A stretch of DNA of 64,000 nucleotides, from IMG/VR virus record IMGVR_UViG_3300029996_000255; one strand, 5' to 3'. Below the pieces are notes generated by a model. That model had not been told where the DNA came from. It was given only the letters and a program-made list of their open reading frames with translations, and searched no databases. This document shows, piece by piece, positions 33,803 to 63,884 of this stretch. The translations under genes and the position numbers were made by a program. This DNA is from a virus (lineage: Duplodnaviria; Heunggongvirae; Uroviricota; Caudoviricetes). Numbering within the stretch: the first letter of the stretch is position 1; each line of letters starts with the position of its first letter.

Positions 33803-34591
33803 ATGAAAAAACATTATTTTATTGATACTATTCACATCATGACAGATTACATGGGTGGATGGTCAAATCAATGGAAAGAAGTTGGTTGGTATGATGATAG
33901 AACAGAAAAATATTTTAATCCAGATGAAGTAAAAGAAATTTTCTTGCAAGGACAAGCAGATAACGTGAATATTGACGAAGACGGGAATTTATATATGGAA
34001 AAACACTGGCTTGATGCAAGAACGGCATTTTCTATTATATGTGGAATTCCATTTGGTGTAACTGATAAATATGAAAATTTACTAAGTTACGCTAAGAAAG
34101 AAAAATGGATAACAGAAACTCCAATTCCAATTCAAATGTATTCTGGAACAAAAACACTTCAAATTAATGATAATAATACATATACAATTAAATACACATT
34201 AGATAAAAATAAATATAATTCTCCGAATATTGATTTTATTCGTAAAATATGTGTTGGTAAAATAAATAAATTAAAAAATAGTGTGTATTTATATTGTCAT
34301 GATGGAATACAAGAAAGTAAAAATTGGTTTACATGTGGAGAAGTTATTTTTGATAGTAAAAATTTAACTCTTGTTATTAATGATATTCCATATTCAGAAG
34401 TATATAAAAGAGAATTAATTGATGCGATAAGAAATTTAGATTTAGAACTTTTGGTATCAAATCGTAATATAGTTAATTTTTCAAATGTGCTATCTGCTTG
34501 TAAAAATTGGTGTAGAGATTGTGGGCAGTATCATTGGATTGATGAAAGTCCAGAAGATAAAAATTCAAATATATATTGGTATGATAAGTAG
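33803..34591 (+). CDS. hypothetical protein (262 aa)
   Basis: GCGGAGGTGAAC ATG. Confidence 0.55.
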   Translation: MKKHYFIDTIHIMTDYMGGWSNQWKEVGWYDDRTEKYFNPDEVKEIFLQGQADNVNIDEDGNLYMEKHWLDARTAFSIICGIPFGVTDKYENLLSYAKKEKWITETPIPIQMYSGTKTLQINDNNTYTIKYTLDKNKYNSPNIDFIRKICVGKINKLKNSVYLYCHDGIQESKNWFTCGEVIFDSKNLTLVINDIPYSEVYKRELIDAIRNLDLELLVSNRNIVNFSNVLSACKNWCRDCGQYHWIDESPEDKNSNIYWYDK

Positions 34592-34630
34592 TTTTGAAAT
34601 TTTCATTTCTTTGGATTGTGAGGTAAAAAT

Positions 34631-35002
34631 ATGCAAATAAATATTAGTTATACATTATATACAGACGGGGATTACAGTTTAAGGAATGCCGAAGATTTTG
34701 GTTGTACTAATAGAGACGTAGTAGTTGATGATTTTGAATATTATGATTATGTTGGTTCTATAGAATTTAAATATGAAGAGGAGTGGCGTTGTAAAAGCGA
34801 AGCAAAAAATTTTCTTTGGAGATTTTTATGTGATGGAATTCATATATCTTATACACATCCTTGGTTACTTAAAGATTTTTATGACATTATGGAATCTTTA
34901 GAGAATATTATTAATGAATATCAAGAGGGAATATCTGTAGCCAAAAAGCATATAACAGGTAACTATGAGGGAACAGAAATTAAAATAGAAATATTGAAGT
35001 AA
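34631..35002 (+). CDS. hypothetical protein
   Basis: ORF track; conserved 5'UTR TTCTTTGGATTGTGAGGT. Confidence 0.5.
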   Translation: MQINISYTLYTDGDYSLRNAEDFGCTNRDVVVDDFEYYDYVGSIEFKYEEEWRCKSEAKNFLWRFLCDGIHISYTHPWLLKDFYDIMESLENIINEYQEGISVAKKHITGNYEGTEIKIEILK

Positions 35003-35030
35003 AGTTCTTTGGATTGTGAGGTGAAAAAGG

Positions 35031-35276
35031 ATGTTTAGAAGAAAAACAAAACTTAAGAAAGTATTAGACAAGAGAACAAATTATGTAACATTTAGAGATT
35101 TTCTAAAATCGTTATCACACAAGGAGTTACATATCTTGGCAGAAGAAATTATCTGGAAAGAATACGATGGATATAATGGTTCATCTTGTCGTATGGAACA
35201 AAATCATTATGACTTAATGGACAGGTGGCAGAAAGAATTTTATATAAAGGAAAGAGAGTATTTATTACCATGGTAA
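35031..35276 (+). CDS. hypothetical protein
   Basis: ORF track; identical 5'UTR TTCTTTGGATTGTGAGGT. Confidence 0.45.
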   Translation: MFRRKTKLKKVLDKRTNYVTFRDFLKSLSHKELHILAEEIIWKEYDGYNGSSCRMEQNHYDLMDRWQKEFYIKEREYLLPW

Positions 35277-35313
35277 AGTTCGATTTATTTTGGAAAAATG
35301 AAAGGAGATTTAT

Positions 35314-35706
35314 ATGGGCGTATCATGTGATATTTGTAAATATGGATGTGAACATGATTATGTGAGAAATAATTATTATTGTTCAAATAAGAACAGCTGC
35401 CATCCAATAGCAGATTCCCCAATTGTTAAGAATTGTAGATATGGAGAAATAGACCAATGGAAATATGATTTTAAATATAAACCAAATAAGAGTGATAAAA
35501 ATGTATCAAAAAAACTTATGTATGAAGAATTGAAAAAGATTCTTTTTGGAATTAAGTTAAAAGATATTGATACTATTATGAAAGAAATTAATGAACTACA
35601 AGATAAAATTACATCATACAGAGAACCATATAAATGTGAAACTTGTGCGGTTAAAGAGTGTGATGTATATGCATTAGGTTGTAGAGATTGTAGTGGTTGG
35701 AAGTAG
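35314..35706 (+). CDS. Cys-rich hypothetical protein
   Basis: ORF track; AAAGGAGATTTAT ATG. Confidence 0.5.
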   Translation: MGVSCDICKYGCEHDYVRNNYYCSNKNSCHPIADSPIVKNCRYGEIDQWKYDFKYKPNKSDKNVSKKLMYEELKKILFGIKLKDIDTIMKEINELQDKITSYREPYKCETCAVKECDVYALGCRDCSGWK

Positions 35707-35799
35707 AAAGAAAACTTCGTTTCCTTTGGATTATAAACGGAGAATATAACAGTAGAAACCATTAACAAAAATAAATATAAGAAAGAAGAGGTACAAAAC

Positions 35800-37911
35800 A
35801 TGGATGGATTTATGATGTTTAAAAAGGCTTTACAGAAGCACTTCGATGAAATGCAGAAAGAGGCAACACATTTATTTGAGGTAAATGTAGATAAGGATGA
35901 ATTATGGAATACATATCTTGATAGCTTCCCTGCTGGTACAAATGAGATTTTCAGAGAGCGTAGAGAACATGATTGTAGTTGTTGTAGACAGTTTATTAAG
36001 AATATTGGTTCTGCTGTCACTATCAAGGATAACCGGATTCATACAATTTGGGAACTGAATCTTGGTGATACAACATATCAGCCAGTATGTGACGCACTTG
36101 ACGCATTTGTAAAGGCTCATACAGTAACAGATATTTACACAACTAAGTTTTCTAAGGTTGGTACAGATTTTAATTTCGAGGAAATCAATGGCAAGTCTCA
36201 TCAGTGGGATCATTTCTTCTTAAAGTTGCCAAGTAAGTTTGTGAACAGAACAAGTCGTTCTAATGAGGAAGTTAAGGGACAGTTTAGAGATACAAGAAAT
36301 GTATTTAAGCGTTCTCTTGATGAAATTACTATGGAAGCACTTGATACAATTCTTGAACTTATCAATTCCAATACTCTTTATAAGGGTGAAGAGTGGAAGG
36401 GTGTTCTCACAGAGTTTAAGAGATATAAGAAGGAATATGATAAGCTCACTTCTGATTCAGAGAAGGAATTATATGCTTGGGAGAAGTCAGTAACAGCAGG
36501 CATGGCTATTGGTAGAATCAGAAATCATTCTATTGGTACACTTCTTATTAATGTAAGCGAGGATATGGACTTAGATACAGCAGTTAAGAAGTATGAGCAG
36601 ATTACCGCTCCGAGCAATTATAAAAGACCAAAGGCTATTTTCACAAAGAAGATGCTTGAAGATGCAAAGAAAACAATCACAGAGCTTGGATATATGGATT
36701 CATTACAGAGAAGATTTGCTAATCTGAATGATATTACTGTGAATAATGTGCTGTTTTCGAATAAAAGTGCTGCAAGAAGAATGGTTGGAGCTGATGATAT
36801 TTTTGGTCAGATGGAGAAGGATGTAGCTGTAAGTCCTAAGAAGTTCTCAAAGGTTGAAGAGATCTCAGCACAGGATTTTATTGATAAGGTACTTCCAACT
36901 GCAAAGGAAATTGAAGCATTTATAGAGAATAAACATGAGAAGAACTTTGTGTCTATGATTGCACCAGTTAATCCAGATGCTAAGACAATGTTCAAGTGGA
37001 ATAATGGATTATCTTGGGCTTATTCAGGAAACATTACTGACTCTGAAATTACAGAAAAAGTGAAAGCTGCTGGTGGAAGAACTGATGGTGTTTTAAGATT
37101 TTCACATAGTTGGAATTATGATGGAATGAGAAATGCTTCTCTTATGGATTTACATGTATTTATGCCTGGTTCAAATCAGAATGTTGTTATCAAGAATGGA
37201 AAAGAAATTCATGATAATTATGGAAATGATGAAAGAGTTGGATGGAATCATAGAAGACATTATGCTTCTGGTGGAGTTCAGGATGTAGATTATACCGCTC
37301 CTGCTCCTATTGGATATGTTCCAGTTGAAAACACAACGTTTCCTTCAATTGATAAATTGAAAGAGGGTGTATACACTTTTAAAATCCATAATTGGAATTT
37401 TAGAAATCCGACAACAGGTGGTTTTAAAGCAGAAATTGCATTTGGCGGTAATGTTTATAGATTTGTAAGAAGAGAACCATTACAGCACAAGGAATGGATT
37501 ACTCTTGCAAAATTAGAATTAAAAAATGGCGAGTTTAGTATTCTTGAGATGGCAGAAAATGATAGTACACCTATTGAAAAGTGGAATATCAAAACAAATC
37601 AGTTTGTGCCTGTATCAGTAATCAGCTATAGTCCAAACTACTTTGATGAGCAGGATGGAATTGGTCATAGACATTTGTTCTTCTTCCTGAAGGATTGTGT
37701 GAATAACGAAGAGCCAAACGGTTACTACAATGAGTTCTTAAAGAGTGACCTTGAAAAGCACAAGAGAGTATTTGAAGCATTAGGTGCTAAGTGTCATGTA
37801 GAAGATACAGATGATCAGCTTTCAGGAATTGGTTTTTCTATGACAAAGAGAGCAGATTTAGTTGTTAAGGTTAAAGGCGCAACAGAGCGTGTAATGAAGA
37901 TTAAATTTTAA
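35800..37911 (+). CDS. large hypothetical protein (703 aa) with an N-terminal HDCSCC motif
   Basis: ORF track; AAGAGGTACAAAAC ATG. Confidence 0.7.
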   Translation: MDGFMMFKKALQKHFDEMQKEATHLFEVNVDKDELWNTYLDSFPAGTNEIFRERREHDCSCCRQFIKNIGSAVTIKDNRIHTIWELNLGDTTYQPVCDALDAFVKAHTVTDIYTTKFSKVGTDFNFEEINGKSHQWDHFFLKLPSKFVNRTSRSNEEVKGQFRDTRNVFKRSLDEITMEALDTILELINSNTLYKGEEWKGVLTEFKRYKKEYDKLTSDSEKELYAWEKSVTAGMAIGRIRNHSIGTLLINVSEDMDLDTAVKKYEQITAPSNYKRPKAIFTKKMLEDAKKTITELGYMDSLQRRFANLNDITVNNVLFSNKSAARRMVGADDIFGQMEKDVAVSPKKFSKVEEISAQDFIDKVLPTAKEIEAFIENKHEKNFVSMIAPVNPDAKTMFKWNNGLSWAYSGNITDSEITEKVKAAGGRTDGVLRFSHSWNYDGMRNASLMDLHVFMPGSNQNVVIKNGKEIHDNYGNDERVGWNHRRHYASGGVQDVDYTAPAPIGYVPVENTTFPSIDKLKEGVYTFKIHNWNFRNPTTGGFKAEIAFGGNVYRFVRREPLQHKEWITLAKLELKNGEFSILEMAENDSTPIEKWNIKTNQFVPVSVISYSPNYFDEQDGIGHRHLFFFLKDCVNNEEPNGYYNEFLKSDLEKHKRVFEALGAKCHVEDTDDQLSGIGFSMTKRADLVVKVKGATERVMKIKF

Positions 37912-37932
37912 TTAGAAAAGGAGATTATTATT

Positions 37933-38322: not shown

Positions 38323-38436
38323 TTGTTATAAATATACCATATATAGTATTAAAAATAAGCATTGCATACTATATATGGTATATATTTTATATTAGAATGA
38401 ATCGCACATTTCTTGAGAGATTTTGGAGGCTAAGAC

Positions 38437-38808: not shown

Positions 38809-38822
38809 GGAGAATAAATACA

Positions 38823-39377: not shown

Positions 39378-39378
39378 T

Positions 39379-40119
39379 ATGTACGAAAAATTGAGAGAAT
39401 ATATAGAAGAATCAAATGATATTGTATTCTTTGGTGGAGCAGGTGTATCTACTGAAAGTGGTATTCCAGATTTTCGTTCCAAGGATGGATTATATAATCA
39501 GCATGATGTTCAGTTTGATAAATACGAGCCAGAGTATCTTTTGAGTAGAGAATGTTTATATAACAATCCAAAAGTATTTTATGAATTCTATCGTCAGAAG
39601 ATGGATACAAGAAACATTGAGCCAAACATTACTCATAAGGTACTTGCTAAAATGGAAAAGATGGGTAAGCTGAAGGCTATTGTTACACAGAATATTGATG
39701 GACTTCATCAGAAGGCTGGCAGTAAAAATGTATTTGAGATTCATGGAACTACTCAGAAAAATTATTGTAGCAAATGCAAAATGGAATATCATCCTGATTT
39801 CTTATTCGATACTAAAGAAGCTATCCCAAAGTGTAAATGTGGTGGACTAATCAGACCTGATGTGACTTTATATGGAGAAAAATTGCCTGATGAAGCTGTA
39901 AATGGTGCTGTTGAAGCAATTAGTAAAGCCGATATGTTGATTATTGGTGGTACTTCATTACAGGTTTATCCAGCAGCAAATTACATCTCATATTTTAGTG
40001 GTAGACATTTGATTGTTATCAATAGAGAAAAAATCCATGTGCTATTGAACGGAGATACTGATTTGATGATTGTTGATTCGTTGGGTAATGTATTTACTGA
40101 GATTGAGAAATGGATGTGA
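39379..40119 (+). CDS. Sir2-family NAD+-dependent protein deacylase / ADP-ribosyltransferase-like protein (CobB-like, 246 aa)
   Basis: GAGVSTESGIPDFRS NAD-binding motif; Zn-binding CSKCK...CKCGG; GTSLQVYPAA motif. Confidence 0.85.
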   Translation: MYEKLREYIEESNDIVFFGGAGVSTESGIPDFRSKDGLYNQHDVQFDKYEPEYLLSRECLYNNPKVFYEFYRQKMDTRNIEPNITHKVLAKMEKMGKLKAIVTQNIDGLHQKAGSKNVFEIHGTTQKNYCSKCKMEYHPDFLFDTKEAIPKCKCGGLIRPDVTLYGEKLPDEAVNGAVEAISKADMLIIGGTSLQVYPAANYISYFSGRHLIVINREKIHVLLNGDTDLMIVDSLGNVFTEIEKWM

Positions 40120-40127
40120 GGTGAACT

Positions 40128-40289
40128 ATGGCGGTATATGTGACAGGTGACATACATGGAACTCCTATAAGATTAAGTAAGGATAGTTTTTATGAACAGA
40201 AAGATTTTTCTGGTAATAAAGATGAAAATATCTTAATTATCCTTGGTGATTTTGGTCTTGTATGGAGCAGAGATGAAGAAAGCAAATAA
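40128..40289 (+). pseudogene. N-terminal fragment (53 aa) of a metallophosphoesterase (GDIHG...ILGDFG), followed by ~290 bp of non-coding DNA; likely a gene remnant
   Basis: only motifs I and II are present; downstream frames do not continue the domain. Confidence 0.4.
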
Positions 40290-40576
40290 GAAAAATATAA
40301 ATCTTATTCATGATCAGTTAATACATATTCTTCAAATTGTTATAACATGGATTGTGTTTATAGCAATTCGATAGAGAATAATTATATATAGAAATTTCTA
40401 TCTTGGCGATTCAGCCAAATTTTCCAAATAAAAGTAACAAGAAATATTTTTTCTTATGGTTTTTGCAGACGTGCAAATTCCATAGGATTTTACAACAAAA
40501 TAATATTAAGAAGAAAGGAATTAAGCAGTAACTCCTAGGTAATTATGGTTACGTAACCTCTGTAAAATAATGTATT

Positions 40577-41065
40577 TTGACAGAGAATAATAAAAAAAAT
40601 AATTCTCAAGGGCTACGAGTGTTAAGTTTATGTGGTGGTGTAGAAACAGGATTATATGCGTTACAACAACTTGGAATACCTATAAGAGAATATCATACAT
40701 ATGAAATTTTACCAGAAGCCATAGCAGTTTCTCAGTATCATTTTCCGCTTGTGGTACATCATGGTGATTTATATGAAGCGGATTTTGAACAGTTCAAAGG
40801 ATTTGATCTTCTATTGGCAGGTACGTGCTGTCAGTCTCTTTCAAGAGTACGAATTGAAAATAAAGAAGTCAACAATGGTCTCGATGGTAAGTCAGGAATT
40901 TTCTTTAAAGCGATTGAGTGTCTTAGGGTAATTCAACCCAAATGTTTCATGTTTGAAAATGTAATACCAAGCAGTGATGAAGATCTAAAGACAATGACAG
41001 ATGAAATTATACATAATTATTACAATGATGATGAATGGGAGATGGTGGAAGATATTACTTACTAA
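40577..41065 (+). CDS. C5-cytosine DNA methyltransferase, N-terminal half (motif I LSLCGGVETG, catalytic-Cys motif IV GTCCQSLS, motif VI FMFENV). The last ~19 codons are insertion-derived
   Basis: motifs read from the translation. Confidence 0.7.
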   Translation: MTENNKKNNSQGLRVLSLCGGVETGLYALQQLGIPIREYHTYEILPEAIAVSQYHFPLVVHHGDLYEADFEQFKGFDLLLAGTCCQSLSRVRIENKEVNNGLDGKSGIFFKAIECLRVIQPKCFMFENVIPSSDEDLKTMTDEIIHNYYNDDEWEMVEDITY

Positions 41066-41699
41066 AGAAGTTAAAGTAAAAGCAAGAAGTAGAAATACAA
41101 AATTATTCGAGAGTTTGGGGTATAAGATTCCAAGAGACAAAGATGATCGAGGAAGAACTCGTGTAGTCCCTAATGCTACCATCATGGTTAAAATAGAGGA
41201 TCTACCAGAAGGGAGCAATGCAATAGTTAAATATCAATGTGATGATTGCGGTTCAATACATACAGTACATTATTCAGATTTAGCATATAGAAAAAATAGT
41301 CGTTTTAAGAAAAATGGTGAGACGTTATGTATTTATTGTTCTAATCATAGAAATTCTGGACAAAATAATCCTCAATATAAACATGGAGAACAAAGGTATT
41401 CTGAATATAGAAGTAACGCACGAAATAGGGGAATAGAGTTTAAACTGTCAGTTGAAGAGTTTAAAAATATAGTAAAACAACCTTGTCATTATTGTGGAGG
41501 ATTTTCATCAGAGTGGAATAAAAATAGCAGAGGTAATGGAATAGATAGAAAAAATAGTGACATAGGTTATATTTATGAAAATTGTGTTCCGTGTTGTAGT
41601 AAATGTAATTTTGTAAAAAACAATACCCCATATGATAAATTTTTGATATATATACGGAGGTTATATGAGACAACAAAGAATTATAAAATTTCGAAATAG
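41001..41699 (+). CDS. HNH homing endonuclease inserted inside the C5-methyltransferase gene (CHYCGG...NGIDRKNSDIGYIYENCVPCCSKCNFVK). Start uncertain; alternative ATGs at 41025-41031
   Basis: HNH motif; sits in a different frame from both methyltransferase halves. Confidence 0.7.
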   Translation: MKLYIIITMMMNGRWWKILLTKEVKVKARSRNTKLFESLGYKIPRDKDDRGRTRVVPNATIMVKIEDLPEGSNAIVKYQCDDCGSIHTVHYSDLAYRKNSRFKKNGETLCIYCSNHRNSGQNNPQYKHGEQRYSEYRSNARNRGIEFKLSVEEFKNIVKQPCHYCGGFSSEWNKNSRGNGIDRKNSDIGYIYENCVPCCSKCNFVKNNTPYDKFLIYIRRLYETTKNYKISK

Positions 41700-42210
41700 A
41701 AAGACAGGTGAAATTCAAACTTTTTCAGTAAGATTGATAGACTCTTCTTTATTTGGTTCTCAGAATCGTGAGAGATATTATTGGACAAACATACCGCTAG
41801 GTGAATTGCCTGAAGAATCTCCATTAGTTTTGAAAGATATTATGGAAAATAATGTAGGTGAGAAGTATTTCTACAAGAAGGACTTTGAGATTTTGGATAT
41901 GAATAAGCGTGTATGTGCTGAACTAAAGGTCAACACAACAGAAATGTGTAAAAGAATTTATAATCCAGATTTCAAAATGTCAACATTAACATGCGTGTCA
42001 GGTGGATATCACGAAAAGAAAGTATTAGATAGTGGTAGACCACGAAAACTTACAGAAGTTGAATATGAAAGATTACAGGGATTGCCTGATAATTTTACAA
42101 AAATTCAGCTTAACAATCGTTGGTTATCATACTCAAAAAGATGTAGTTTGATGGGCAATGGATGGAATGAACCTACTATTGAATGGATTTTGAGTGGGTT
42201 AAGAGAATAA
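41665..42210 (+). CDS. C5-cytosine DNA methyltransferase, C-terminal half (motif VIII QNRERYYW, target-recognition domain, motif IX RKLTEVEYERLQGLPDNF, motif X GNGW), with its own RBS (ACGGAGG) and ATG
   Basis: motifs read from the translation. Confidence 0.7.
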   Translation: MRQQRIIKFRNRKTGEIQTFSVRLIDSSLFGSQNRERYYWTNIPLGELPEESPLVLKDIMENNVGEKYFYKKDFEILDMNKRVCAELKVNTTEMCKRIYNPDFKMSTLTCVSGGYHEKKVLDSGRPRKLTEVEYERLQGLPDNFTKIQLNNRWLSYSKRCSLMGNGWNEPTIEWILSGLRE

Positions 42211-42267
42211 AAGAAAGGAGTAAGAGGTTTGGTATACCGAAAACGCAGCGTTTACTCCTGATACATA

Positions 42268-42771
42268 ATGATAATAAATAGAGTCTGGCAGATGCCAAAT
42301 AGCAACACATTTTCAATTAAGCCAATTAAGGAATTAATTGAGAAATATGCAACTGGTAAGATTGTTGATCCGTTTGCTAATAGCAATAAATTGGCAACAG
42401 TGACAAATGACTTAGATACACAATATGATACTGATTACCATATGGATGCATTGGATTTCTTAAAGATGTTCGATGATAACTCAGTAGATACAGTGTTATA
42501 TGATCCACCATACTCGCCACGACAGGTAAGCGAATGTTACAAAAATCTTGGACAGACAGTAAATATGCAGACAACACAAGCTTCATATTGGTCTAAACAG
42601 AAGGAGCAGATAGGAAGAATTGTAAAGAAAGATGGCATTGTAATTACTTGTAGCTGGAATAGTGGTGGTATTGGTAAGAAGTATGGCTTTGAAATTCAGG
42701 AAATTTTACTTGTTCCGCATGGCGGCTGGCACAATGATACAATTGTTGTGGTTGAGAAGAAGATCGAGTAG
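42268..42771 (+). CDS. small N6-adenine/N4-cytosine DNA methyltransferase-like protein (VDPFANSN ... LYDPPYSP)
   Basis: DPPY catalytic motif and FxGxG-like motif. Confidence 0.5.
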   Translation: MIINRVWQMPNSNTFSIKPIKELIEKYATGKIVDPFANSNKLATVTNDLDTQYDTDYHMDALDFLKMFDDNSVDTVLYDPPYSPRQVSECYKNLGQTVNMQTTQASYWSKQKEQIGRIVKKDGIVITCSWNSGGIGKKYGFEIQEILLVPHGGWHNDTIVVVEKKIE

Positions 42772-42867
42772 AGAATAACATAATATGAAGTTCGCAGGAA
42801 AGCGGAATTTCTTCTAAGTTTTCAGAGAATAAATACATATAAAAAACAAGAAAAGAGGATTAAATGT

Positions 42868-43173
42868 ATGAGTAAAGCTATTTTAGTGTTAGATATGCCT
42901 GGAACTTGTTGTGATTGTAATTTTTGTAGAGAAATACAAGAAGGTATCGAAGCATGTTGTGAATTAATGGATGAGCCAAATGATAATACTCTTTGTAGAA
43001 TGGTTGATAGTAAAAATGAATATTGTCAAGAAAAACCAAATTGGTGTCCATTAAAAGAATTGCCAGAAGAGACTCACAATGATGAATATATGGATGAATA
43101 TTGTGATGGCTACGATGATGGTTGGAACTCATTAAGAAAGAAAATTTTAGGTGAAGATGAAGAGAATAAATAG
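42868..43173 (+). CDS. Cys-rich acidic protein
   Basis: ORF track; AAAGAGGATTAAATGT ATG. Confidence 0.45.
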   Translation: MSKAILVLDMPGTCCDCNFCREIQEGIEACCELMDEPNDNTLCRMVDSKNEYCQEKPNWCPLKELPEETHNDEYMDEYCDGYDDGWNSLRKKILGEDEENK

Positions 43174-43521
43174 ATGACAATTGGTGTAAAAATATGTGAA
43201 GCAAAAGATACAATTAAGAAATACGAAAACCTTGGGTATAGATTTGTTAGTGAAGAAAATGTGGGTGAAGGATACCTAAAGCTCATATTCAGAGAACCAA
43301 TTATTCCAAAAGAGACTTTGATTAAAATACCGAATGTTTCATCTGCTGTTACAGGTACAATTCCAAGAGTATTTCTTTTTAAAACTGATTTACCATTTGA
43401 CGAAGCCGAGAGAACAGGTGAATGGATTTATAAAAACATTAAGAAAGGTGTGCTTGTTATTCCAGAATGTGTTGAATTCATAGGTGTAGAAGATCTATTT
43501 AAGACAGAAAGGATAGAATAA
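43174..43521 (+). CDS. hypothetical protein
   Basis: ORF track; TAGATG coupling. Confidence 0.5.
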   Translation: MTIGVKICEAKDTIKKYENLGYRFVSEENVGEGYLKLIFREPIIPKETLIKIPNVSSAVTGTIPRVFLFKTDLPFDEAERTGEWIYKNIKKGVLVIPECVEFIGVEDLFKTERIE

Positions 43522-43728
43522 ATGAATAAAGAAAAACAAATTGAGGTATTAGAAGATCTAAAATCTTATGTAAATGAAGAGTGGGATGAGTATGAATACG
43601 CAGATGATATAAAGGATGCCAATGTAGTACTGGATGTAGCGATAGCTTTAATCAAATCGTCTAATGTTGCAGGTACATTATCTATAAATGATAAAAATTA
43701 TATAGTTCTTGAAGGTCAAGAATCATAG
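43522..43728 (+). CDS. hypothetical acidic protein
   Basis: ORF track; TAAATG coupling. Confidence 0.45.
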   Translation: MNKEKQIEVLEDLKSYVNEEWDEYEYADDIKDANVVLDVAIALIKSSNVAGTLSINDKNYIVLEGQES

Positions 43729-43755
43729 ATTTCTTTTGGAGTTTAGGAGGGTTTT

Positions 43756-43905
43756 ATGAGAATATATACTGAAATGGAATGCGATATTGGTTGTGAAGAT
43801 GGATTTTTTTGCGAATATTACAATGAAGAAACAAAAAGTTGTAATTATCCAAATGTTTGTAATGTTTATAAAGAAAATAAAAAGAAACATTGGTGGCAGA
43901 AATAA
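43756..43905 (+). CDS. small Cys-rich protein (49 aa)
   Basis: TTAGGAGGGTTTT ATG. Confidence 0.3.
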   Translation: MRIYTEMECDIGCEDGFFCEYYNEETKSCNYPNVCNVYKENKKKHWWQK

Positions 43906-43936
43906 TAGAGAATAAAACAACAGGAGGTGCAAATAA

Positions 43937-44350
43937 ATGCAGAATATTAGTATTAAAGGAGTTTGCGATTGTGTAGACTTAGACAGAAATATCAAATTAA
44001 CAAATGGTGCAGTCGTAGTGCAGAAAGAAAATAATAATGTAATAGGTGTTTATTTAGTGATTTCGTTCAGAGATAATAAAAACAAATATGGTAGCGATAG
44101 TACATCAACATACTGTAGTTTGGTAAATCTCGACAATGGACAATTAGCTTTTGAAGAAAGATGTAGTCGTGCTACAACAGAGAGACGTGTTCTTAGACAT
44201 CTAACAAGAGCAGGTTTTAGTTATCCTTATAATCCAAATTCTCATGAGCAGGATAGTAAGTTTTACAATATGAGAGTTCAGGTTTATAACAATGGAAATT
44301 ACAAAATGAATCTTGAACTTGGTGACGAATACATTATGTATGGTAGATAG
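43937..44350 (+). CDS. hypothetical protein
   Basis: ORF track; CAGGAGGTGCAAATAA ATG. Confidence 0.5.
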   Translation: MQNISIKGVCDCVDLDRNIKLTNGAVVVQKENNNVIGVYLVISFRDNKNKYGSDSTSTYCSLVNLDNGQLAFEERCSRATTERRVLRHLTRAGFSYPYNPNSHEQDSKFYNMRVQVYNNGNYKMNLELGDEYIMYGR

Positions 44351-44363
44351 GAGAATAAATCAT

Positions 44364-44576
44364 ATGAAGAAGAAAATTTTAGCAGTTGTATTAGGATTGA
44401 CATTATGCTTTGGATTATCTGGATGTGCGAATAAACATGAAACAATCACTATAAGTAGTCATGATGATTTTATCTTTGATGATATTACTATCAATTTGAA
44501 AGAAGGATATTGGGTAAGAGATTATAATATTGACTATGAAAATGGGGTTGTAATCATAAATTTGGACAAAGATTAA
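44364..44576 (+). CDS. small lipoprotein (signal peptide MKKKILAVVLGLTLCFGLSGC with lipobox LSGC); candidate superinfection-exclusion-type surface protein
   Basis: lipobox read from the translation; TAGGAGAATAAATCAT ATG. Confidence 0.55.
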   Translation: MKKKILAVVLGLTLCFGLSGCANKHETITISSHDDFIFDDITINLKEGYWVRDYNIDYENGVVIINLDKD

Positions 44577-44675
44577 GAAGCACAAGAATCCGACATTTCA
44601 TGGTAAGTTTAACACTACATATACTGGTTAGATAAAATAATAATAACAAGATATAGTATAGAAAGGAAAAACATT

Positions 44676-45188
44676 ATGAGTAAAACACTAATTGTAATTG
44701 ATATGCAGAATGACTTTATTGATGGCTCACTTGGCACAAATGAAGCACAGAGTATTGTACTTAATGTGGCAAAGAAAATCAAGGAGTACAGAGAAAATGG
44801 TGATAGTGTAATTTTTACAAGAGATACACACCCAAATAATTATTTAGAAACATATGAAGGAAAGCATCTCCCAGTTGTCCATTGTGTAAAAAATACAATC
44901 GGATGGCAGATTTCAGATAAGTTAGATTTTGATATTGAGAATGACGTAGTTATTGATAAGCCGACTTTCGGATGGACACATTGGGATGATTTTGATTTTA
45001 CAGAAGTAGAAGTTTGTGGTCTTTGTACAGACATTTGTGTAGTGTCAAATGCACTTATGATTAGAGCAAATTATCCTAATATTGATATTACAGTGGATGC
45101 AAGTTGCTGTGCAGGTGTTACACCTGAGACGCATAAGGCTGCATTAGAGACAATGAAGATGTGTCAGATTAACGTGATTGGAGAGTAG
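44676..45188 (+). CDS. pncA: isochorismatase-family cysteine hydrolase, nicotinamidase (PncA)-like
   Basis: LIVIDMQNDFIDGSLG N-terminal motif, catalytic Cys in VCGLCTDICV, Zn-binding H...H. Confidence 0.7.
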   Translation: MSKTLIVIDMQNDFIDGSLGTNEAQSIVLNVAKKIKEYRENGDSVIFTRDTHPNNYLETYEGKHLPVVHCVKNTIGWQISDKLDFDIENDVVIDKPTFGWTHWDDFDFTEVEVCGLCTDICVVSNALMIRANYPNIDITVDASCCAGVTPETHKAALETMKMCQINVIGE

Positions 45189-45191
45189 AAT

Positions 45192-46028: not shown

Positions 46029-46032
46029 AATT

Positions 46033-47493: not shown

Positions 47494-47494
47494 T

Positions 47495-48638: not shown

Positions 48639-48894
48639 AAAAATATATATTATATATAGTGATACATAAAGACAAATACAACTATATATAGTGTTAAATT
48701 GAAAGCGATATTTCATTAGTTTGTAGGAGTTTATTACGGGCTTAGGATTTAGATGGTTTAAAGATTATAAAATATTAGATTCTGGTGAAACATATCAGGC
48801 ATTTGGACATTGTTATTATGATGAATACTCAATTAAATATATCAACTGCGACTCTACATCTCATTCTTATTATAATGTAAGTCTGGTAAGAGAA

Positions 48895-49589: not shown

Positions 49590-49737
49590 AGCTATAATGA
49601 AATTTTGGTTTCTTGGCTTGTCACGAAAACTACACAATATTCGAGACAAAAAGAGAATATAACAATATAATTACAAATTAATGAAAGGATTAGAGTTCAC
49701 ATGTGAGTAAAGCTGCGCAGCTACCAGGTGAACAAAT

Positions 49738-51514: not shown

Positions 51515-51721
51515 TTAATATAATTGAAGATTTAGGAAAAATATATTATAAAAATAATTTTAAACAAAGAGTATCATGTGTTTTGGTAGAGTGTAATATC
51601 TGTAAAATTAAAAATATTATATCTAAAACACGATTTAAAAAATAAAGATGTATATATATGCAAACCCTGTGCTGCAAGAATAAAGTAGGAAAACCACGTT
51701 TCATTCGGGGGAGGTGATTGA

Positions 51722-52178: not shown

Positions 52179-52403
52179 ATGGGTAAAGTTGTAGATATGA
52201 GTAATTTTGATCCGTTATTTGATAATTTGGAAAAGTATGTGAATAAACAAGGATGTACTCTCGGTAAAGACGCTGAGAGATTACAAAAGTTATTATATTC
52301 AATTCAGTATTGTTATATACATGGAGTATTAACAGATAGTCAAAATGAATCGGCTTGTAAGAAATTTAGAAAACAATTTCAGAAAGCTTTATATGAGAAA
52401 TAA
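52179..52403 (+). CDS. hypothetical protein
   Basis: ORF track. Confidence 0.45.
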   Translation: MGKVVDMSNFDPLFDNLEKYVNKQGCTLGKDAERLQKLLYSIQYCYIHGVLTDSQNESACKKFRKQFQKALYEK

Positions 52404-52486
52404 GAAAGAAGCATTTCTTTCGAGTTTTTGAATGACAAAGAGAGAATAAATATATAGAAAATAGAAAGAGAGGTACTGAAAATTTG

Positions 52487-54041: not shown

Positions 54042-54233
54042 ATGAGATCGGAGATTAAAAGACGACAATTTTCTGAAAATCATCAATCTTGGTTCTCCCA
54101 CGATTATGCTTGTTGGGCAAATAATCACAATGGTTGGAGAAAGATGAAAAAGAAGAATCGTAGATTATTTAAAAAGAAGTATAGAAGAGAAGTTGAGAAA
54201 GATATTAATAAAGAATTGAATGATATGCAATAA
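54042..54233 (+). CDS. small basic protein
   Basis: GCGAGGTAAGTGT ATG. Confidence 0.45.
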   Translation: MRSEIKRRQFSENHQSWFSHDYACWANNHNGWRKMKKKNRRLFKKKYRREVEKDINKELNDMQ

Positions 54234-54302
54234 CAATAAATTCAGGTTTCCTTTGGACGCAAAGAGAGGATAGGAGTTAGAAAAGATAAAAGAGGTGAAT
54301 TA

Positions 54303-54923: not shown

Positions 54924-54980
54924 TTGTGGTAGCTTCACAAGAATGCAACATATCATTGGATTATAGAAAAGAGGTATCAA

Positions 54981-55274: not shown

Positions 55275-55302
55275 CAAAAAATTATAAAGGAGAATATTAA
55301 AC

Positions 55303-55614: not shown

Positions 55615-55662
55615 TGGTTTCGAAGTAAACCAATCTTTCATTTGGCAGATTGGAGGTGTGAA

Positions 55663-55920: not shown

Positions 55921-55957
55921 ATAATAAATATATAATTTTGAATCGGAGAATAATATT

Positions 55958-57581: not shown

Positions 57582-57626
57582 ATTAACAGGAAAGATTCGT
57601 TTCTTGTGGAAATGTGGAGATAAAAA

Positions 57627-58199
57627 ATGGAGAAATTTTATATTGTAACAAATGAGAAATTCCTCAAAGAGATTGATGATTATAGAAAACATGAGGAAGA
57701 AAGAAGAATATTAGTAAATAATTTTTTTGAGAATAAAGGTATTGCTGGAAAAGAATATCATATTAGTGGAGATGGATTTGTAAATCGTCCATTTAAAGAG
57801 CATGAGAAACATAATATTAGATTATATATTGCCCATTGCGATGAAAACAATCAGAAATTTGGTAAGGAATTACTAAAACCAACTAAGTTATTCTGCGATT
57901 CTAATGTATTAATGAGAAAATTTAGAGCCAATAGCAAAACATTAAAAGAGTTCCAGGATTTGTGCATTGAAAAAGAAATTGTTATTAATAATCATCCAAT
58001 TCAAGAAGGAGATTATTTCAAGGAATTACATTTAGGGGGATATTCAATTTTAAAATTTGAGTATGGAAATAAATTATATTTGAAGATTTCTACAACAAAA
58101 TATGAAACTATTACACCAGATAATGATATAGGTTTTACAGAAATTAAAGGTAGTGAATTTTATAAAGCACTTGAAGAATTTGAATCGAAGAACGGATAA
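57627..58199 (+). CDS. hypothetical protein
   Basis: ORF track; TGGAGATAAAAA ATG; TCGTTTCTTGTGG element upstream. Confidence 0.5.
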   Translation: MEKFYIVTNEKFLKEIDDYRKHEEERRILVNNFFENKGIAGKEYHISGDGFVNRPFKEHEKHNIRLYIAHCDENNQKFGKELLKPTKLFCDSNVLMRKFRANSKTLKEFQDLCIEKEIVINNHPIQEGDYFKELHLGGYSILKFEYGNKLYLKISTTKYETITPDNDIGFTEIKGSEFYKALEEFESKNG

Positions 58200-58251
58200 A
58201 TATCGTTTCCTTTAGAAATAATTTTGCACAAAGAAAGGAGAGAATAATAGA

Positions 58252-59914: not shown

Positions 59915-60047
59915 AAGAGAGAATAATACAATAGGTGGTATATTTCATAAAATCGCATACTATATATAGTGGTTATATAAATTTAAACTACTATATATAG
60001 TAATAAAAAGGACAAGAAATATCGGTTTCCTTAGGAGGTGAAAAATG

Positions 60048-60590: not shown

Positions 60591-60613
60591 ACGAAGCAAA
60601 GGAGATTTAAAAA

Positions 60614-60907
60614 ATGATGAATTTTGGACAGGCAATTGAAGCATTAAAGAATGGTAAGAAAGTAGCAAGAGTTGGATGGAATGGTAAGGGTGTGTTTTTG
60701 TATATGACAACAGGAAGTGTTGTTCATTTAGATGAAATGAAATCAGAAACAGCAAATTATTTAAGAAGTTTTTGTAAAGATAAAGGTATGGACGAAATTG
60801 AAATTTGCCCACATATTGATATGAAGACAGCAGACAATAAGTTAGTTATTGGATGGCTTGCAAGTCAGACAGATATGCTTGCTAAAGATTGGAACGTGGT
60901 AGAGTAA
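60614..60907 (+). CDS. DUF2829-like protein (MNFGQAIEALKNGKKVARVGWNGKGVFLYM); candidate Tad2-type signalling-nucleotide sponge
   Basis: N-terminal sequence pattern characteristic of DUF2829/Tad2 proteins. Confidence 0.5.
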   Translation: MMNFGQAIEALKNGKKVARVGWNGKGVFLYMTTGSVVHLDEMKSETANYLRSFCKDKGMDEIEICPHIDMKTADNKLVIGWLASQTDMLAKDWNVVE

Positions 60908-61011
60908 AATAAGATACTATATACAGTGTGTATTAAATAAATATACACTATATATAGTAATAAAAGTACCATGAAATTTCGATTTCTTTTGGAGAATATA
61001 CATAAGGAGGA

Positions 61012-61905: not shown

Positions 61906-61955
61906 AACACAAGAATCTGACATTTCTTGGTTCAATTTTAAAGGAGAGTTATAAA

Positions 61956-62126
61956 ATGAGCGATATTTGTAAAGATAGAGAAGCTTTAAGACCTAAATAC
62001 GAACATTTTATTCAGACTGAGAGAGGTAAAGAATGGAAACACTTTTGGCAGAGTCAAATAGGTTCAGATATAGGTGGAGATTTTGGAGATTATTTGTATG
62101 ACTTTTATCCAGAAATGTTGCAGTAA
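61956..62126 (+). CDS. small hypothetical protein (56 aa)
   Basis: AAAGGAGAGTTATAAA ATG. Confidence 0.35.
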   Translation: MSDICKDREALRPKYEHFIQTERGKEWKHFWQSQIGSDIGGDFGDYLYDFYPEMLQ

Positions 62127-62138
62127 GGAGAAAAATAA

Positions 62139-62387
62139 ATGGCGAAAAAGAAAGGTTTTGGTGTAAGTCCAATAACAAATACAATCTACTATGGAACACA
62201 GGATACAGAAAAACATATGTGGGTTGGACAGAAAACAGATGTTACGAATGATGTGATAGCTGCTGTATATGAATGGTTTATGGGTAATATGGAAGACTCT
62301 GAAGGTAAGAAAGAAGAATATCAGATCACATATCCTAATACAGAGTTTGAATTAGTAATGAGAAGAAAGAAAACAGAGAGCATATAG
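62139..62387 (+). CDS. hypothetical protein
   Basis: ORF track; TAAGGAGAAAAATAA ATG. Confidence 0.5.
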   Translation: MAKKKGFGVSPITNTIYYGTQDTEKHMWVGQKTDVTNDVIAAVYEWFMGNMEDSEGKKEEYQITYPNTEFELVMRRKKTESI

Positions 62388-62402
62388 TTGGAGGTGAGAA
62401 AT

Positions 62403-62687
62403 GTGATTCAAGTAATTGAGACAAATTTGAGCATTGATAATGATAATATTATAAGAGATCATCAGTCACTAATTGTTGAAGTTGAAGATTGGGATACATA
62501 TTGCAAAGCATTTGAAAAATACAATGGCAAAGCTGTTTATTTCAAGTCAAAGACTATGCCTGGTAACAGTATCTTATCGAATTGCTCTATAACAGATCTG
62601 ATATATGATGACATTCATCTATCTTGTATAATCTTACACCAATCAGGTTTTATTACGAAGAAACTTGCATATAGAATTGTTTTATAA
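62403..62687 (+). CDS. hypothetical protein
   Basis: TTGGAGGTGAGAAAT GTG. Confidence 0.45.
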   Translation: MIQVIETNLSIDNDNIIRDHQSLIVEVEDWDTYCKAFEKYNGKAVYFKSKTMPGNSILSNCSITDLIYDDIHLSCIILHQSGFITKKLAYRIVL

Positions 62688-62800
62688 TCTATGATTCATT
62701 CGAATCACAATTTCCAATAAAAATGAAAATCGAATAGAGAATAAGTAAGTGAAAGGAGTGAGTGGCAGCCTTAAAGATATATCGCTCTGAGTAAATTACA

Positions 62801-63625
62801 ATGTACGAACCAGTAATTAAATGGAGTGGAAGTAAAAGAAGTCAGGCTGAAAAGATTTTAACATTTTTTCCAAAAGAGATTGATACCTATTATGAACCGT
62901 TTTGTGGTGGAGCTTCAGTTTTAAGGAGACTTCTCGATAGTGATATACGAGTTAAGCATTATATATGTAGTGATTTGAATAGTGGGTTGATTGACTTATG
63001 GAATGAAATTATTAACAATCCGTTAGAAGTTTCTTCTTATTATAAGAAGCTTTGGAATGAATTAAATACAGATGACGACAAGCAACGAAAGAAAGAATAT
63101 TTTGCCAATGTTAGGGACAGATACAACAAAGAGCATAATCCATTAGATTTTATGTTTATTATGAGAACAACAACTAATGGTATGCCAAGATATAACCGTA
63201 ATGGTGAATTTAACAATTCATTTCATGTGACTAGAAATGGTATTATTCCTGAAACATTTGAGAAGATAATTTTTGAATGGAGTCAATTATTAAAACAGAA
63301 TGATGTTAAATTTATCAGTTGTTTGTATGAAGATATAAAACCAACAGAGAATGATTATATGTATCTTGATCCACCTTATGCGAATACAAAAGGCATGTAT
63401 TATGGAACTATTGATTATGAAAAATTTTGGGACTATTTAAGGCAGTTGCCATGCAGATATGCTTTATCTTTTGATGGTAAGAGTGGTGATATAGATAATA
63501 CTTGGAATGTCCCTAAAGACATATATACAACACATGAGTATTTGCTAAGTGGTAATAGCAGTTTTAAGCGTACAATTGGTAAATCAAACGACAGCATTGT
63601 TTACGAAAGTTTGTATGTAAAGTAG
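62801..63625 (+). CDS. dam: Dam-family (D12 class) N6-adenine DNA methyltransferase
   Basis: IKWSGSKRSQAEKIL, EPFCGGASV and LDPPYANT motifs. Confidence 0.8.
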   Translation: MYEPVIKWSGSKRSQAEKILTFFPKEIDTYYEPFCGGASVLRRLLDSDIRVKHYICSDLNSGLIDLWNEIINNPLEVSSYYKKLWNELNTDDDKQRKKEYFANVRDRYNKEHNPLDFMFIMRTTTNGMPRYNRNGEFNNSFHVTRNGIIPETFEKIIFEWSQLLKQNDVKFISCLYEDIKPTENDYMYLDPPYANTKGMYYGTIDYEKFWDYLRQLPCRYALSFDGKSGDIDNTWNVPKDIYTTHEYLLSGNSSFKRTIGKSNDSIVYESLYVK

Positions 63626-63884
63626 AGAATATATAAGTAGTAAGAAACCTGCGTTTCATTGGCTTTGCAAACATAGTATTTACAAGGGTTTTAGAGGTCA
63701 AAAATTTCAAAAAATGCTCAAATCGAGCTAAATTCCATAATTTTCAATGATTTTTAGAGAATAACAAAAATGAGGTGCTAAAAACCCTTATAAATCAATG
63801 GTTTTATAGCATCAATATCAAGAAACAGAGAATATAAGAATAGCAAGAAATCACTGTTTCTTTGGAATTTGAGGAGGTGAGAAA

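Follow-up and report, generated by a model that had tools for sequence, protein, structure and literature searches.

In a 64,000-nucleotide stretch of DNA from a tailed virus of the Caudoviricetes (IMG/VR record IMGVR_UViG_3300029996_000255; hereafter the window) there are 33 good copies, about seven weaker copies and one truncated copy of a 24-bp two-fold symmetric site with the consensus CCAAAGAAA-N6-TTTCTTTGG and the core GAAA-N6-TTTC, a good site being one in which at least 7 of the 8 core positions match. An earlier note on this DNA had described a conserved T-rich motif just upstream of the ribosome-binding sites of a number of genes. That motif is the right arm only of the dyad-symmetric site, the left arm having been missed because it usually overlaps the end of the upstream gene and its stop codon. 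The interpretation favoured here, to which we give a probability of roughly 0.45, is that the site is an operator, bound as double-stranded DNA by a dimeric helix-turn-helix regulator of the Cro/CI type that is either encoded by the phage or found throughout the host family.

That the motif is not a chance product of base composition was confirmed with a loose form of it, TTTC[ACT]T{1,3}[AG]G, which occurs 19 times on the plus strand of the 9.2 kb of intergenic DNA, compared to 1.62±1.21 expected and a maximum of 5 in 300 dinucleotide-preserving shuffles of the intergenic segments. Over the whole window 19 of the 26 plus-strand matches fall in the 14% of the sequence that is non-coding. The strict words are weakly enriched (TTTCYTTGG, 6 compared to 1.4; TTTCNTTGG, 9 compared to 2.8) because the length of the T-run varies, and the words CCTTT, TTTCC, GTTTC, CTTTGG and TTTCATT are four to eight times commoner in intergenic than in coding DNA. 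All 18 instances listed in the earlier note are present at, or within a few bases of, the positions that it gave, but their apparent restriction to the region between 34.6 and 63.9 kb did not hold up, as 13 good sites are found from 2.1 to 21.7 kb. Intergenic sites are missing from the stretch between 21.7 and 33.0 kb, where simple arithmetic based on the density elsewhere leads to an expectation of about 6.7, and this site-free block holds genes for an AP2-domain protein, an integrase, an Xre-type helix-turn-helix (HTH)/PemK pair, a weakly sigma-like protein, a GmrSD-like protein, TnpB and an SPFH protein together with two tRNAs.

The existence of the second arm is apparent from the spacing. 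GAAA is found exactly 6 nt upstream of TTTC in 14 of the 26 loose-motif instances, and nearly all of the others have TAAA or GAAT at that point, whereas the background chance of finding GAAA anywhere from 3 to 9 nt upstream is 0.14 (p = 2e-7). Among the 18 instances originally listed 15 have [G/T]AA[A/T] exactly 6 nt upstream of TTTC; the instance at 54953 has it upstream of a degenerate TATC, that at 35004 is a truncated right arm without a left arm and that at 58204 is one base out of register. The motif as first described is thus real, but it is half of a larger element with a partner arm 6 nt upstream. Two further details of the earlier description are accounted for in the same way: the shared prefix ACAAGAATC[CT]GACATTTC at 44581 and 61908 represents two complete sites with near-identical spacers, and the identical TTCTTTGGATTGTGAGGT at 34608 and 35004 reflects a shared leader, the left half of the site at 35004 having been lost. 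In relatives a full site (N6 attctc) stands before the gene that follows this truncated copy. The pattern GAAANNNNNNTTTC occurs 22 times in the window, compared to 3.0±1.8 expected, with none of 100 shuffles reaching 22, and other spacings (2-5 and 7-12) occur between one and seven times each. When the window was combined with 80 related loci (1.6 Mb in all) there were 329 unique contexts at N6, compared to 21-56 at other spacings of 2-9 and 11; a secondary value of 98 contexts at N10 is produced by GAAAGAAA arms. Anchoring on the right arm gave the same answer, with GAAA at a gap of 6 in 96 contexts and at any other gap in 1-15.

Two-fold symmetry is also evident in the position matrix, where A at -2 (75%) has its counterpart in T at +15 (73%), an enriched C at -5 answers to G at +18, and the bases at -1 and +14 both vary. 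Matches to the motif on the minus strand turn out to be the same intergenic sites with a better left arm (e.g. CCCAAAGAAA-aattgc-TTTCAAG-TGGAGG). Downstream of a set of paired boxes described below, where coding constraint on the left arm is absent, the two arms are equally conserved. The centres of the half-sites are 10 bp apart, that is one helical turn, on either side of the 6-nt spacer. A dimeric DNA-binding protein is favoured because the half-sites match the consensus independently of one another at this distance around a variable spacer, and symmetric half-sites, an exclusive 6-nt spacing and a non-conserved spacer together make up the geometry of an operator. The operators of phage 434 are built in just this way, ACAA-N6-TTGT being a 14-bp dyad with 4-bp contacted half-sites and a 6-bp non-conserved spacer. 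The sequence itself fits no described family: a literature search for the motif string gave no matches, and among the matches listed in an exact-pattern scan of IMG/VR for CAAGAAA-N6-TTTCTTTGG chance occurrences and related contigs were mixed, which made the scan uninformative.

The sites stand in the narrow gaps that separate cistrons in arrays of accessory and early-type genes. The usual layout around a site is a stop codon, the palindrome, 3-10 nt, a Shine-Dalgarno sequence and a start codon. Among 99 non-redundant sites, drawn from the window and from related phages, the left arm mostly begins between 6 nt before and 12 nt after the upstream stop codon, and in 50 of the 99 the TTTC core lies 20-29 nt from the next start codon. 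The proximity to the ribosome-binding site that had been remarked upon therefore stands as a usual short distance, but nine sites in the window are 36-121 nt upstream of the start, and the element is anchored to the whole of the short intercistronic gap, its left arm abutting or overlapping the upstream stop, rather than to the ribosome-binding site. Some sites that follow a stop codon, including those at 35705, 19403, 49594, 52399 and 42793, are separated from the start by 45-121 nt in which a promoter-like GAGAATAW block lies. Those at 38394, 48696, 60011 and 60968, by contrast, are remote from the preceding gene; they adjoin the ribosome-binding site, and a region of paired ACTATATATAGT-like boxes lies 8-19 nt upstream of them. 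These paired palindromes (38337-38378, 48650-48691, 59960-60000 and 60917-60957) have box centres 31-32 bp apart, a further box is found at 24522-24531, and there are 11 matches with no more than one mismatch in the window compared to 4.2 expected; each pair is followed 8-19 nt later by a dyad site and a ribosome-binding site. The boxes resemble tandem NrdR boxes in geometry and sequence, but the genes downstream (one for a 123-aa protein of unknown function followed by Sir2, one for a Tad2-like protein, and others of unknown function) are not nrd genes. One ACTATATATAGT-like box overlaps a perfect TTGACA-N17-TATAAT promoter beside the Xre-HTH gene, and on sequence grounds the paired boxes may instead be operators of the Xre-HTH repressor.

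Much of the argument turns on whether the site is read in DNA or in RNA. Its position had been thought to argue for a role in the transcript, a view that is not borne out given the symmetric arms, the rigid 6-bp spacer and the lack of compensatory change. In an RNA-level operator a hairpin with a GAAA/UUUC stem and a 6-nt loop, or the U-rich right arm 5' of the Shine-Dalgarno sequence, would be bound by a phage or host protein so as to repress or enhance translation, direct intercistronic cleavage or stabilise the downstream mRNA. The right arm does end only a few nucleotides before the Shine-Dalgarno sequence, with half of the sites at the 20-29 nt distance given above; the four sites that lie 8-19 nt past the promoter-like paired-box regions are near the expected 5' end of a transcript; the consensus arms are complementary around a loop of fixed length; TTCG or CG is frequent in the spacer; and the phage encodes a PemK/MazF-type endoribonuclease. 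If pairing were what is maintained, however, departures in one arm should be compensated in the other, and the RNA stem is not supported because they are not. The L4/R4 pairs (G-C 103, T-C 62, G-A 20 and T-A 12) occur as the product of the margins, i.e. independently, there is no association at L5/R5 or L1/R1, and the first and last bases of the spacer are not complementary. True arms make 6.20 pairs out of 9, compared to 6.31±0.08 for arms re-paired at random. In an unbiased set of 53 non-redundant sites, chosen for an exact core and a downstream Shine-Dalgarno sequence without regard to the outer arms, the mean fold energy was -3.38 kcal/mol, compared to -3.36±0.27 kcal/mol for chimeras, and outer-arm pairing was 3.47, compared to 3.59±0.15. 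Counting pairs in the 33 window sites gave 64.0% paired, compared to 66.5±1.6% after shuffling of the partners; the covariation score was 0.084, compared to 0.105. Of these 33 sites 19 lack pairing at pair 5 and 22-25 at pairs 1-3, and about one third of sites have TAAA...TTTC, which as RNA would place a U·C mismatch in the 4-bp core. Folding of 27 instances yielded weak hairpins (-0.7 to -7.5 kcal/mol), most z-scores being within ±2, and a scan of the whole window at the Rfam gathering thresholds found two tRNAs only. The sites at 35705, 19403, 49594 and 52399, with a promoter-like block between them and the ribosome-binding site, are also difficult to accommodate. A hairpin maintained by pairing was accordingly rejected, four independent covariation tests being negative, and an RNA-level operator in the wider sense is judged unlikely. 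A mimic of the anti-Shine-Dalgarno sequence was rejected by inspection, as often no more than 3-6 nt separate the right arm from the Shine-Dalgarno sequence, and the fixed GAAA partner would be unexplained.

A promoter class was another of the roles that had been proposed, with transcription starting just downstream of the right arm under the direction of a phage RNA polymerase or sigma-like factor. In favour of this, the motif has the same orientation as the genes and is found immediately before the leader and ribosome-binding site, and the sigma-like factor in question is probably the 218-aa product of 26339-26995, which has a weak match to sigma-70 region 2 (E = 7e-4; 19.8 bits, below the Pfam cut-off of 24). 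Two-fold symmetry with a 6-bp gap is, however, foreign to promoter architecture, only 3-10 nt separate the right arm from the Shine-Dalgarno sequence, and at most sites a -10 element and a start point would not fit ahead of the ribosome-binding site. Several sites lie between a promoter-like region and the ribosome-binding site, and there is no excess of sigma-A-type -10-like hexamers, which are found upstream of 33% of sites and at 29% of other gene ends. Furthermore, the conserved block before the gene for a 703-aa protein is retained in relatives that lack the palindrome. A promoter role is consequently rated as very improbable. The ATAAACGGAGAATATAAC block, rather than the palindrome, is on sequence evidence the better promoter candidate before the 703-aa gene because it is kept in relatives with or without the palindrome; it is invariant upstream of that gene in nearly all of them. 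GAGAATAW as a whole occurs 71 times, compared to 16 expected, 67 of the 71 being on the plus strand (e.g. at 35740, 19437, 40583, 42825, 49653, 52442, 59919, 63625 and 63828). Part of the excess arises where the upstream TAA stop comes after a Shine-Dalgarno sequence (GGAGAATAA..ATG), and copies far from starts, such as the ATAAACGGAGAATATAAC block, look like a phage-specific promoter element. The idea that the dyad motif serves as a -35 element for this block was rejected, since the distance between the two ranges from 0 to 38 nt. The sites at 35705 and 19403 do share one spacing, which would put the dyad centre near -40 if TATAAC/TAATAC were the -10.

Termination, or a structural or selfish repeat of the type of the PeSL stem-loop without a specific binder, would suit an element that directly follows stop codons, and in T4-type phages PeSL stem-loops are likewise positioned ahead of a promoter and Shine-Dalgarno sequence (PMC4122927). 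An intrinsic terminator is recognised by a stable G+C-rich stem and a U-tract, neither of which the dyad sites possess: the stem is A/U-rich and effectively 4-5 bp long, and no U-tract follows the arm. Conventional GC-rich terminators with T-runs are present elsewhere (e.g. 5280-5331, 8811-8876 and 22830-22888). It is the sequence of the arms and not their pairing that is conserved, which points to sequence recognition, and this explanation is regarded as extremely unlikely.

The distribution of the site among related genomes bears on what might recognise it. The window has a G+C content of 30% and about 146 open reading frames, mostly small and nearly all on the plus strand, and a nucleotide search against isolated phages found no close relative. 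The 703-aa protein encoded at 35800-37911 (phrog_1735) shares 55% identity with proteins of Bastille-like Bacillus myoviruses and has about 395 relatives in IMG/VR, on contigs of 90-217 kb, at 79-98% identity. Relatives of this marker also occur in Eubacterium segne BX4, on a 340-kb contig (80% identity; NZ_JACOOZ010000003.1), in Konateibacter massiliensis, on a 3.0-Mb contig (67% identity; NZ_LT860099.1), and within large contigs of Lacrimispora, Ruminococcus and other Lachnospiraceae genomes. A 333-aa tyrosine integrase with an N-terminal SAM-like domain is encoded at 23151-24152. The integrase, together with relatives inside large Lachnospiraceae contigs, indicates that the source is a large (ca. 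150-kb) temperate phage of gut Lachnospiraceae. The enrichment at N6 is kept in the prophage locus of E. segne (9 exact cores in 22 kb), in the locus of K. massiliensis (8 exact cores, with the marker 67% identical) and in that of a Ruminococcus sp. (5 exact cores, marker 56% identical). These three loci have other spacers and flanks and slightly altered arms (ATGAAA-N6-TTTCAT). In relative loci associated with Bacilli the enrichment is absent, and it is likewise absent from Bacillus phage TsarBomba, so that a general feature of the Herelleviridae can be rejected. Because the enrichment persists in the Lachnospiraceae loci and is absent from those of the Bacilli, the recogniser would appear to be a protein conserved in this phage clade or else a factor shared by the Lachnospiraceae.

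The sites also coincide with junctions in the mosaic structure of these genomes. Before the 703-aa gene, the block AAGAAAACTTCGTTTCCTTTGGATT has at least 10 different genes as its upstream neighbour among relatives; in other relatives the palindrome block is missing and the junction is at the promoter-like block before the 703-aa gene. In a comparison of roughly 80 genomes, in which a spacer allele marks one positional slot, the numbers of gene families flanking a slot on the left and right were 3 and 18 for CGCACA, 6 and 25 for GCGGAA, 17 and 16 for GTTCGA and 21 and 7 for ACTTCG. A single leader, ...attctc-TTTCTTTGGATTGTGAGGTGAAAA...ATG, precedes 14 unrelated N-termini. The comparison shows that gene replacements begin and end at the sites, because the site and its adjoining leader are the only sequence conserved between otherwise unrelated neighbouring genes, and sites and leaders thus form a conserved frame for the replacement of cargo genes much like the T4 PeSL cassettes.

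Such a pattern raises the question of whether the site is the core of a tyrosine-recombinase target of the dif, loxP or FRT type, with inverted 9-bp arms around a 6-bp crossover region, an Xer-like integrase as the candidate enzyme and the spacer as the address of the slot. The geometry fits, such sites having inverted arms of 9-13 bp and a centre of 6-8 bp, the window encodes the 333-aa integrase with its SAM-like domain, spacer alleles mark slots with widely differing flanking genes, one leader stands before 14 unrelated open reading frames, and two sites with the same spacer were found together in none of 82 loci. However, homologous recombination between syntenic phages at short conserved sequences gives the same pattern, breakpoints are found at start codons and at the promoter-like block without a palindrome as well as at the sites, the uniqueness of spacers within a genome follows from orthology alone, and no cassette flanked by identical sites was found. 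A recombination site is therefore considered improbable. Still a little less probable is an integron-like, position-addressed exchange of anti-defence and accessory genes in which the integrase binds the 9-bp arms and the slot-unique spacer acts as the address; only equivalent slots of co-infecting or resident relatives might then recombine, and the sites might double as operators.

If the site is instead a DNA operator, as we favour, we infer that protein binding at the DNA level has a roadblock effect on transcription. In the presence of the regulator, which is most plausible for the prophage state, each site would be occupied and would form an obstacle to RNA polymerase immediately ahead of the next ribosome-binding site, so that transcription into the next cassette would be blocked or dampened; where a promoter lies nearby, the occupied site could control it. 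With one site per cassette a newly acquired gene would come under the same control, and the outcome would be a coordinated silencing of the prophage, forming a symmetric counterpart of the stoperators of the Cluster A mycobacteriophages (PMC9283540). A number of observations weigh against this. Pfam and PHROG scans of 80 window proteins, most of them ORFans, gave no convincing candidate for a binder. The single clear HTH in the Pfam scans is the Xre-type protein encoded at 24173-24595, and the promoter region of its own gene has a ACTATATATAGT-like palindrome and no dyad site. The complementary arms of the consensus make a weak RNA hairpin possible at many sites, an RNA-binding protein that reads sequence plus shape would give no covariation either, and the tight packing against the Shine-Dalgarno sequence fits a translational role equally well. 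The genes at the sites are all on one strand, so orientation dependence is not separable. The composition of the spacer, furthermore, is non-random, being 42% G+C in a 31% genome, with CG enriched 3.9-fold, TTCG often present at varying positions and TA depleted across the window and the 80 related loci, and this is not obviously explained by a plain non-contacted spacer; requirements of DNA shape, or a second reader, could be responsible. Finally, the analysis covers the 64-kb window and related loci, and the structural gene module and host chromosome lie outside it. What had been concluded of the motif in more general terms, that it lies in a short leader just upstream of many Shine-Dalgarno sequences and is very probably recognised by a regulatory factor, stands.

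Comparison with known systems places the site close to several repeats without identity to any. Operators of the Cro/CI type share the layout of half-sites and 6-bp spacer with centres one helical turn apart, as in 434, but are found in few copies at the immunity region, whereas here there are about 33 copies in 64 kb and none at the Xre-HTH gene of the window. The Cluster O mycobacteriophages carry a 17-bp dyad repeat, TGTTCGG-NNN-CCGAACA, whose function is unknown and which its authors compared with stoperators; it too is a short dyad with a variable centre, present genome-wide in more than 30 copies per genome and mostly intergenic, but it has invariant 7-bp arms and a 3-bp spacer, about one third of copies are in coding sequence, there is no link to translation starts, and the phages have no integrase and yielded no stable lysogens (PMC4351075). 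The present site has degenerate arms and a 6-bp spacer, nearly all good sites are intergenic and beside a ribosome-binding site, and the phage is temperate. The SAS and ESAS elements of Cluster K directly precede the start codons of genes from varied families in the non-structural half of the genome, all in one orientation, and ESAS is an imperfect inverted repeat just upstream of the ribosome-binding site that may contain the upstream stop and whose function is unknown (PMC3203893). SAS, on the other hand, is a non-palindromic 13-bp sequence that contains the Shine-Dalgarno core 3-7 bp from the start, and ESAS has 17-bp arms with a variable 4-13 bp spacer (PMC3203893); the element described here is separate from and upstream of the Shine-Dalgarno sequence, with 9-bp arms and a fixed 6-bp spacer, and so falls outside that group. 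Stoperators resemble it in being many copies of a repressor site in the short intergenic gaps of a temperate phage, and have been proposed to stop elongating RNA polymerase and so silence lytic genes, but they are asymmetric 13-bp sites bound in an orientation-dependent manner by a monomeric repressor (PMC9283540, PMC6550527), whereas the present site is two-fold symmetric and is not linked to a repressor. By analogy it can act in a stoperator-like manner while lying outside the stoperator family. The T4-type PeSL combines an inverted repeat, a promoter and a Shine-Dalgarno sequence before small accessory open reading frames in hyperplastic regions, and is found where the insertions, deletions and replacements that distinguish related phages begin or end; its stems are read as terminators, however, its loop length varies and a sigma-70-type promoter is always present (PMC2839356, PMC4122927). 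Here the spacer is rigid and the arms specific, and only about six sites are followed by a GAGAATAW block, most being followed directly by the Shine-Dalgarno sequence. In behaviour the Cluster O repeats, ESAS, stoperators and PeSLs would seem the closest parallels, each differing in a defining feature, be it symmetry, spacer rigidity, separation from the Shine-Dalgarno sequence or the lack of an obligatory promoter.

The individual sites are listed in Table 1. Other genes and elements in the window were noted in passing. The Xre-HTH gene (24173-24595, Cro/C1-type, minus strand) forms a divergent pair, 24173-24938, with a PemK/MazF-type toxin gene (24588-24938, plus strand); the ATG at 24439 is probably the true start of the Xre-HTH gene, whose product would then have about 88 aa, a consensus sigma-A promoter region lies between the two genes, and the pair is reported as the only clear minus-strand gene locus in the window. 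A set of genes of the anti-defence style spans 39379-48638 and 60614-60907. It includes an NAD+ salvage pathway consisting of Sir2 (39379-40119), an isochorismatase/nicotinamidase (44676-45188), a phosphoribosyltransferase/PRPP-synthetase-like protein (45192-46028), NAMPT (46033-47493) and NAD synthase (47895-48638), and a Tad2-like anti-Thoeris protein (60614-60907). A C-5 cytosine DNA methyltransferase is split over the overlapping open reading frames 40619-41065, 41001-41699 and 41665-42210, the first holding the N-terminal part of PF00145 and the third the C-terminal part, and is either a disrupted gene or one that depends on frameshifting. D12-class adenine methyltransferases are encoded at 49738-50610 and 62801-63625 and a DUF4942 methyltransferase at 5533-7167. 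A TnpB gene (29770-31158; OrfB_IS605 and a Cas12f1-like TNB domain), within 29109-31419, has unusually long non-coding flanks of about 660 nt upstream and 261 nt downstream, which could hold the ends of the element and a guide (omega) RNA. Genes for tRNA-Gln(UUG) and tRNA-Lys(UUU) are in tandem at 32494-32644. A small protein encoded at 1141-1395, with a match to PF17420 (superinfection exclusion gp17; E = 9e-11), starts an array of small genes, the gaps of which share a variant TAAAT(T/G)CG..TTT..TTAG.

Table 1. Copies of the 24-bp dyad site in the window (spacers in lower case; a dot in the strand column, no strand assigned; the fourth column gives the position under which the earlier note listed the motif).
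Feature	Position	Strand	Earlier position	Remarks
Weak site CTTAATAAA-tgcatg-TTTTTTGGA	1391..1414	.		core 6/8
Dyad site CAGACTAAA-ttcgtg-TTTCATTAG	2145..2168	.		upstream TAA stop within left arm
Weak site, core TAAA-ttcgca-TTTA	2816..2839	.		
Dyad site GACTTGAAA-ctaaga-TTTCTTAGG	3128..3151	.		start codon 15 nt downstream
Dyad site CAAAGGAAA-ttgtaa-TTTCCAAAG	7920..7943	.		
Dyad site CAAAGGAAA-gaactg-TTTATTTAG	10615..10638	.		
Dyad site AGAAAGAAA-tagcaa-TTTCATTTT	12274..12297	.		stop at 12272, start at 12317
Dyad site CCAAGCAAA-caagag-TTTCAAGGG	14314..14337	.		
Dyad site AATATGAAA-tgagga-TTTACTTGG	14723..14746	.		
Dyad site ACAATGAAA-cgatga-TTTATTGAG	14987..15010	.		overlaps end of upstream gene
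Dyad site CCAATGAAT-ccaagt-TTTCATAAA	17782..17805	.		
Dyad site GTAAGGAAA-tttaac-TTTCCTTTT	18385..18408	.		
Dyad site GATTAGAAA-ttcgac-TTTCATTGG	18635..18658	.		
Weak site CTGATTAAA-tgacga-TTTACTTGG	19403..19426	.		GAGAATAATA 10 nt later, spacing as at 35705
Dyad site AGATTGAAA-gagtta-TTTCAAATG	21381..21404	.		Shine-Dalgarno sequence directly after
Dyad site CCAAAGGAA-aattgc-TTTCAATAG	21641..21664	.		
Dyad site AGTAAGAAA-tgtggt-TTTCTTTGG	33046..33069	.		gene start downstream at 33088
Dyad site ATATTGAAA-tttctc-TTTCAAGCG	33770..33793	.		ATG downstream at 33803
Dyad site GTTTTGAAA-ttttca-TTTCTTTGG	34591..34614	.	34608	followed by leader ATTGTGAGGTAAAAAT-ATG
Truncated copy, right-arm remnant GTTCTTTGG	35004..35012	+	35004	leader same as at 34591 site
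Weak site CATGGTAAA-gttcga-TTTATTTTG	35269..35292	.		
Dyad site AGAAAGAAA-acttcg-TTTCCTTTG	35705..35728	.	35717	71 nt before start of 703-aa gene, upstream of conserved ATAAACGGAGAATATAAC block
Dyad site AGAATGAAT-cgcaca-TTTCTTGAG	38394..38417	.		paired ACTATATATAGT-like boxes upstream
Degenerate site AACAAGAAA-tatttt-TTCTTATGG	40436..40459	.		one T shorter than the TATTTT-slot site of relatives
Dyad site CGCAGGAAA-gcggaa-TTTCTTCTA	42793..42816	.		
Dyad site GTCAAGAAT-cataga-TTTCTTTTG	43715..43738	.	43738	upstream stop overlapped
Dyad site CACAAGAAT-ccgaca-TTTCATGGT	44581..44604	.	44596	
Dyad site AAATTGAAA-gcgata-TTTCATTAG	48696..48719	.		paired-box region 8 nt upstream
Dyad site ATAATGAAA-ttttgg-TTTCTTGGC	49594..49617	.	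49606	
Dyad site AGTAGGAAA-accacg-TTTCATTCG	51684..51707	.	51699	
Dyad site AATAAGAAA-gaagca-TTTCTTTCG	52399..52422	.	52414	
Dyad site AACAATAAA-ttcagg-TTTCCTTTG	54232..54255	.	54248	
Weak dyad site CACAAGAAT-gcaaca-TATCATTGG	54936..54959	.	54953	
Dyad site CGAAGTAAA-ccaatc-TTTCATTTG	55621..55644	.	55637	
Dyad site AACAGGAAA-gattcg-TTTCTTGTG	57585..57608	.	57597	
Weak off-register site, TAAA-tatcg-TTTC	58192..58215	.	58204	5-nt spacer
Dyad site GACAAGAAA-tatcgg-TTTCCTTAG	60011..60034	.	60024	paired-box region 14 nt upstream
Dyad site ACCATGAAA-tttcga-TTTCTTTTG	60968..60991	.	60978	paired-box region 14 nt upstream
Dyad site CACAAGAAT-ctgaca-TTTCTTGGT	61908..61931	.	61911	
Dyad site AGTAAGAAA-cctgcg-TTTCATTGG	63639..63662	.	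63649	
Dyad site AGCAAGAAA-tcactg-TTTCTTTGG	63842..63865	.	63856	

Intergenic motifs repeated throughout a genome are known in few phage groups, namely as stoperators, SAS/ESAS, Cluster O repeats and PeSLs, and a function has been established for the stoperators only. The dyad site extends the phenomenon to an abundant, uncultured-looking clade of ca. 150-kb temperate phages of human-gut Lachnospiraceae, and it is unusually well defined, with a rigid 4+6+4 core within 24 bp. The sites frame slots that hold anti-defence cargo, including NAD+ salvage genes, a Tad2-like protein and DNA methyltransferases, and the presence of a relative in the cultured strain Eubacterium segne BX4 makes the function directly testable. 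Should the site prove to be a symmetric stoperator, genome-wide silencing by roadblock would have arisen independently outside the actinobacteriophages; should it prove to be a recombination site, it would represent a new mechanism of cassette exchange. Either way, it provides a practical marker for delimiting the cassettes and leaders of these phages.

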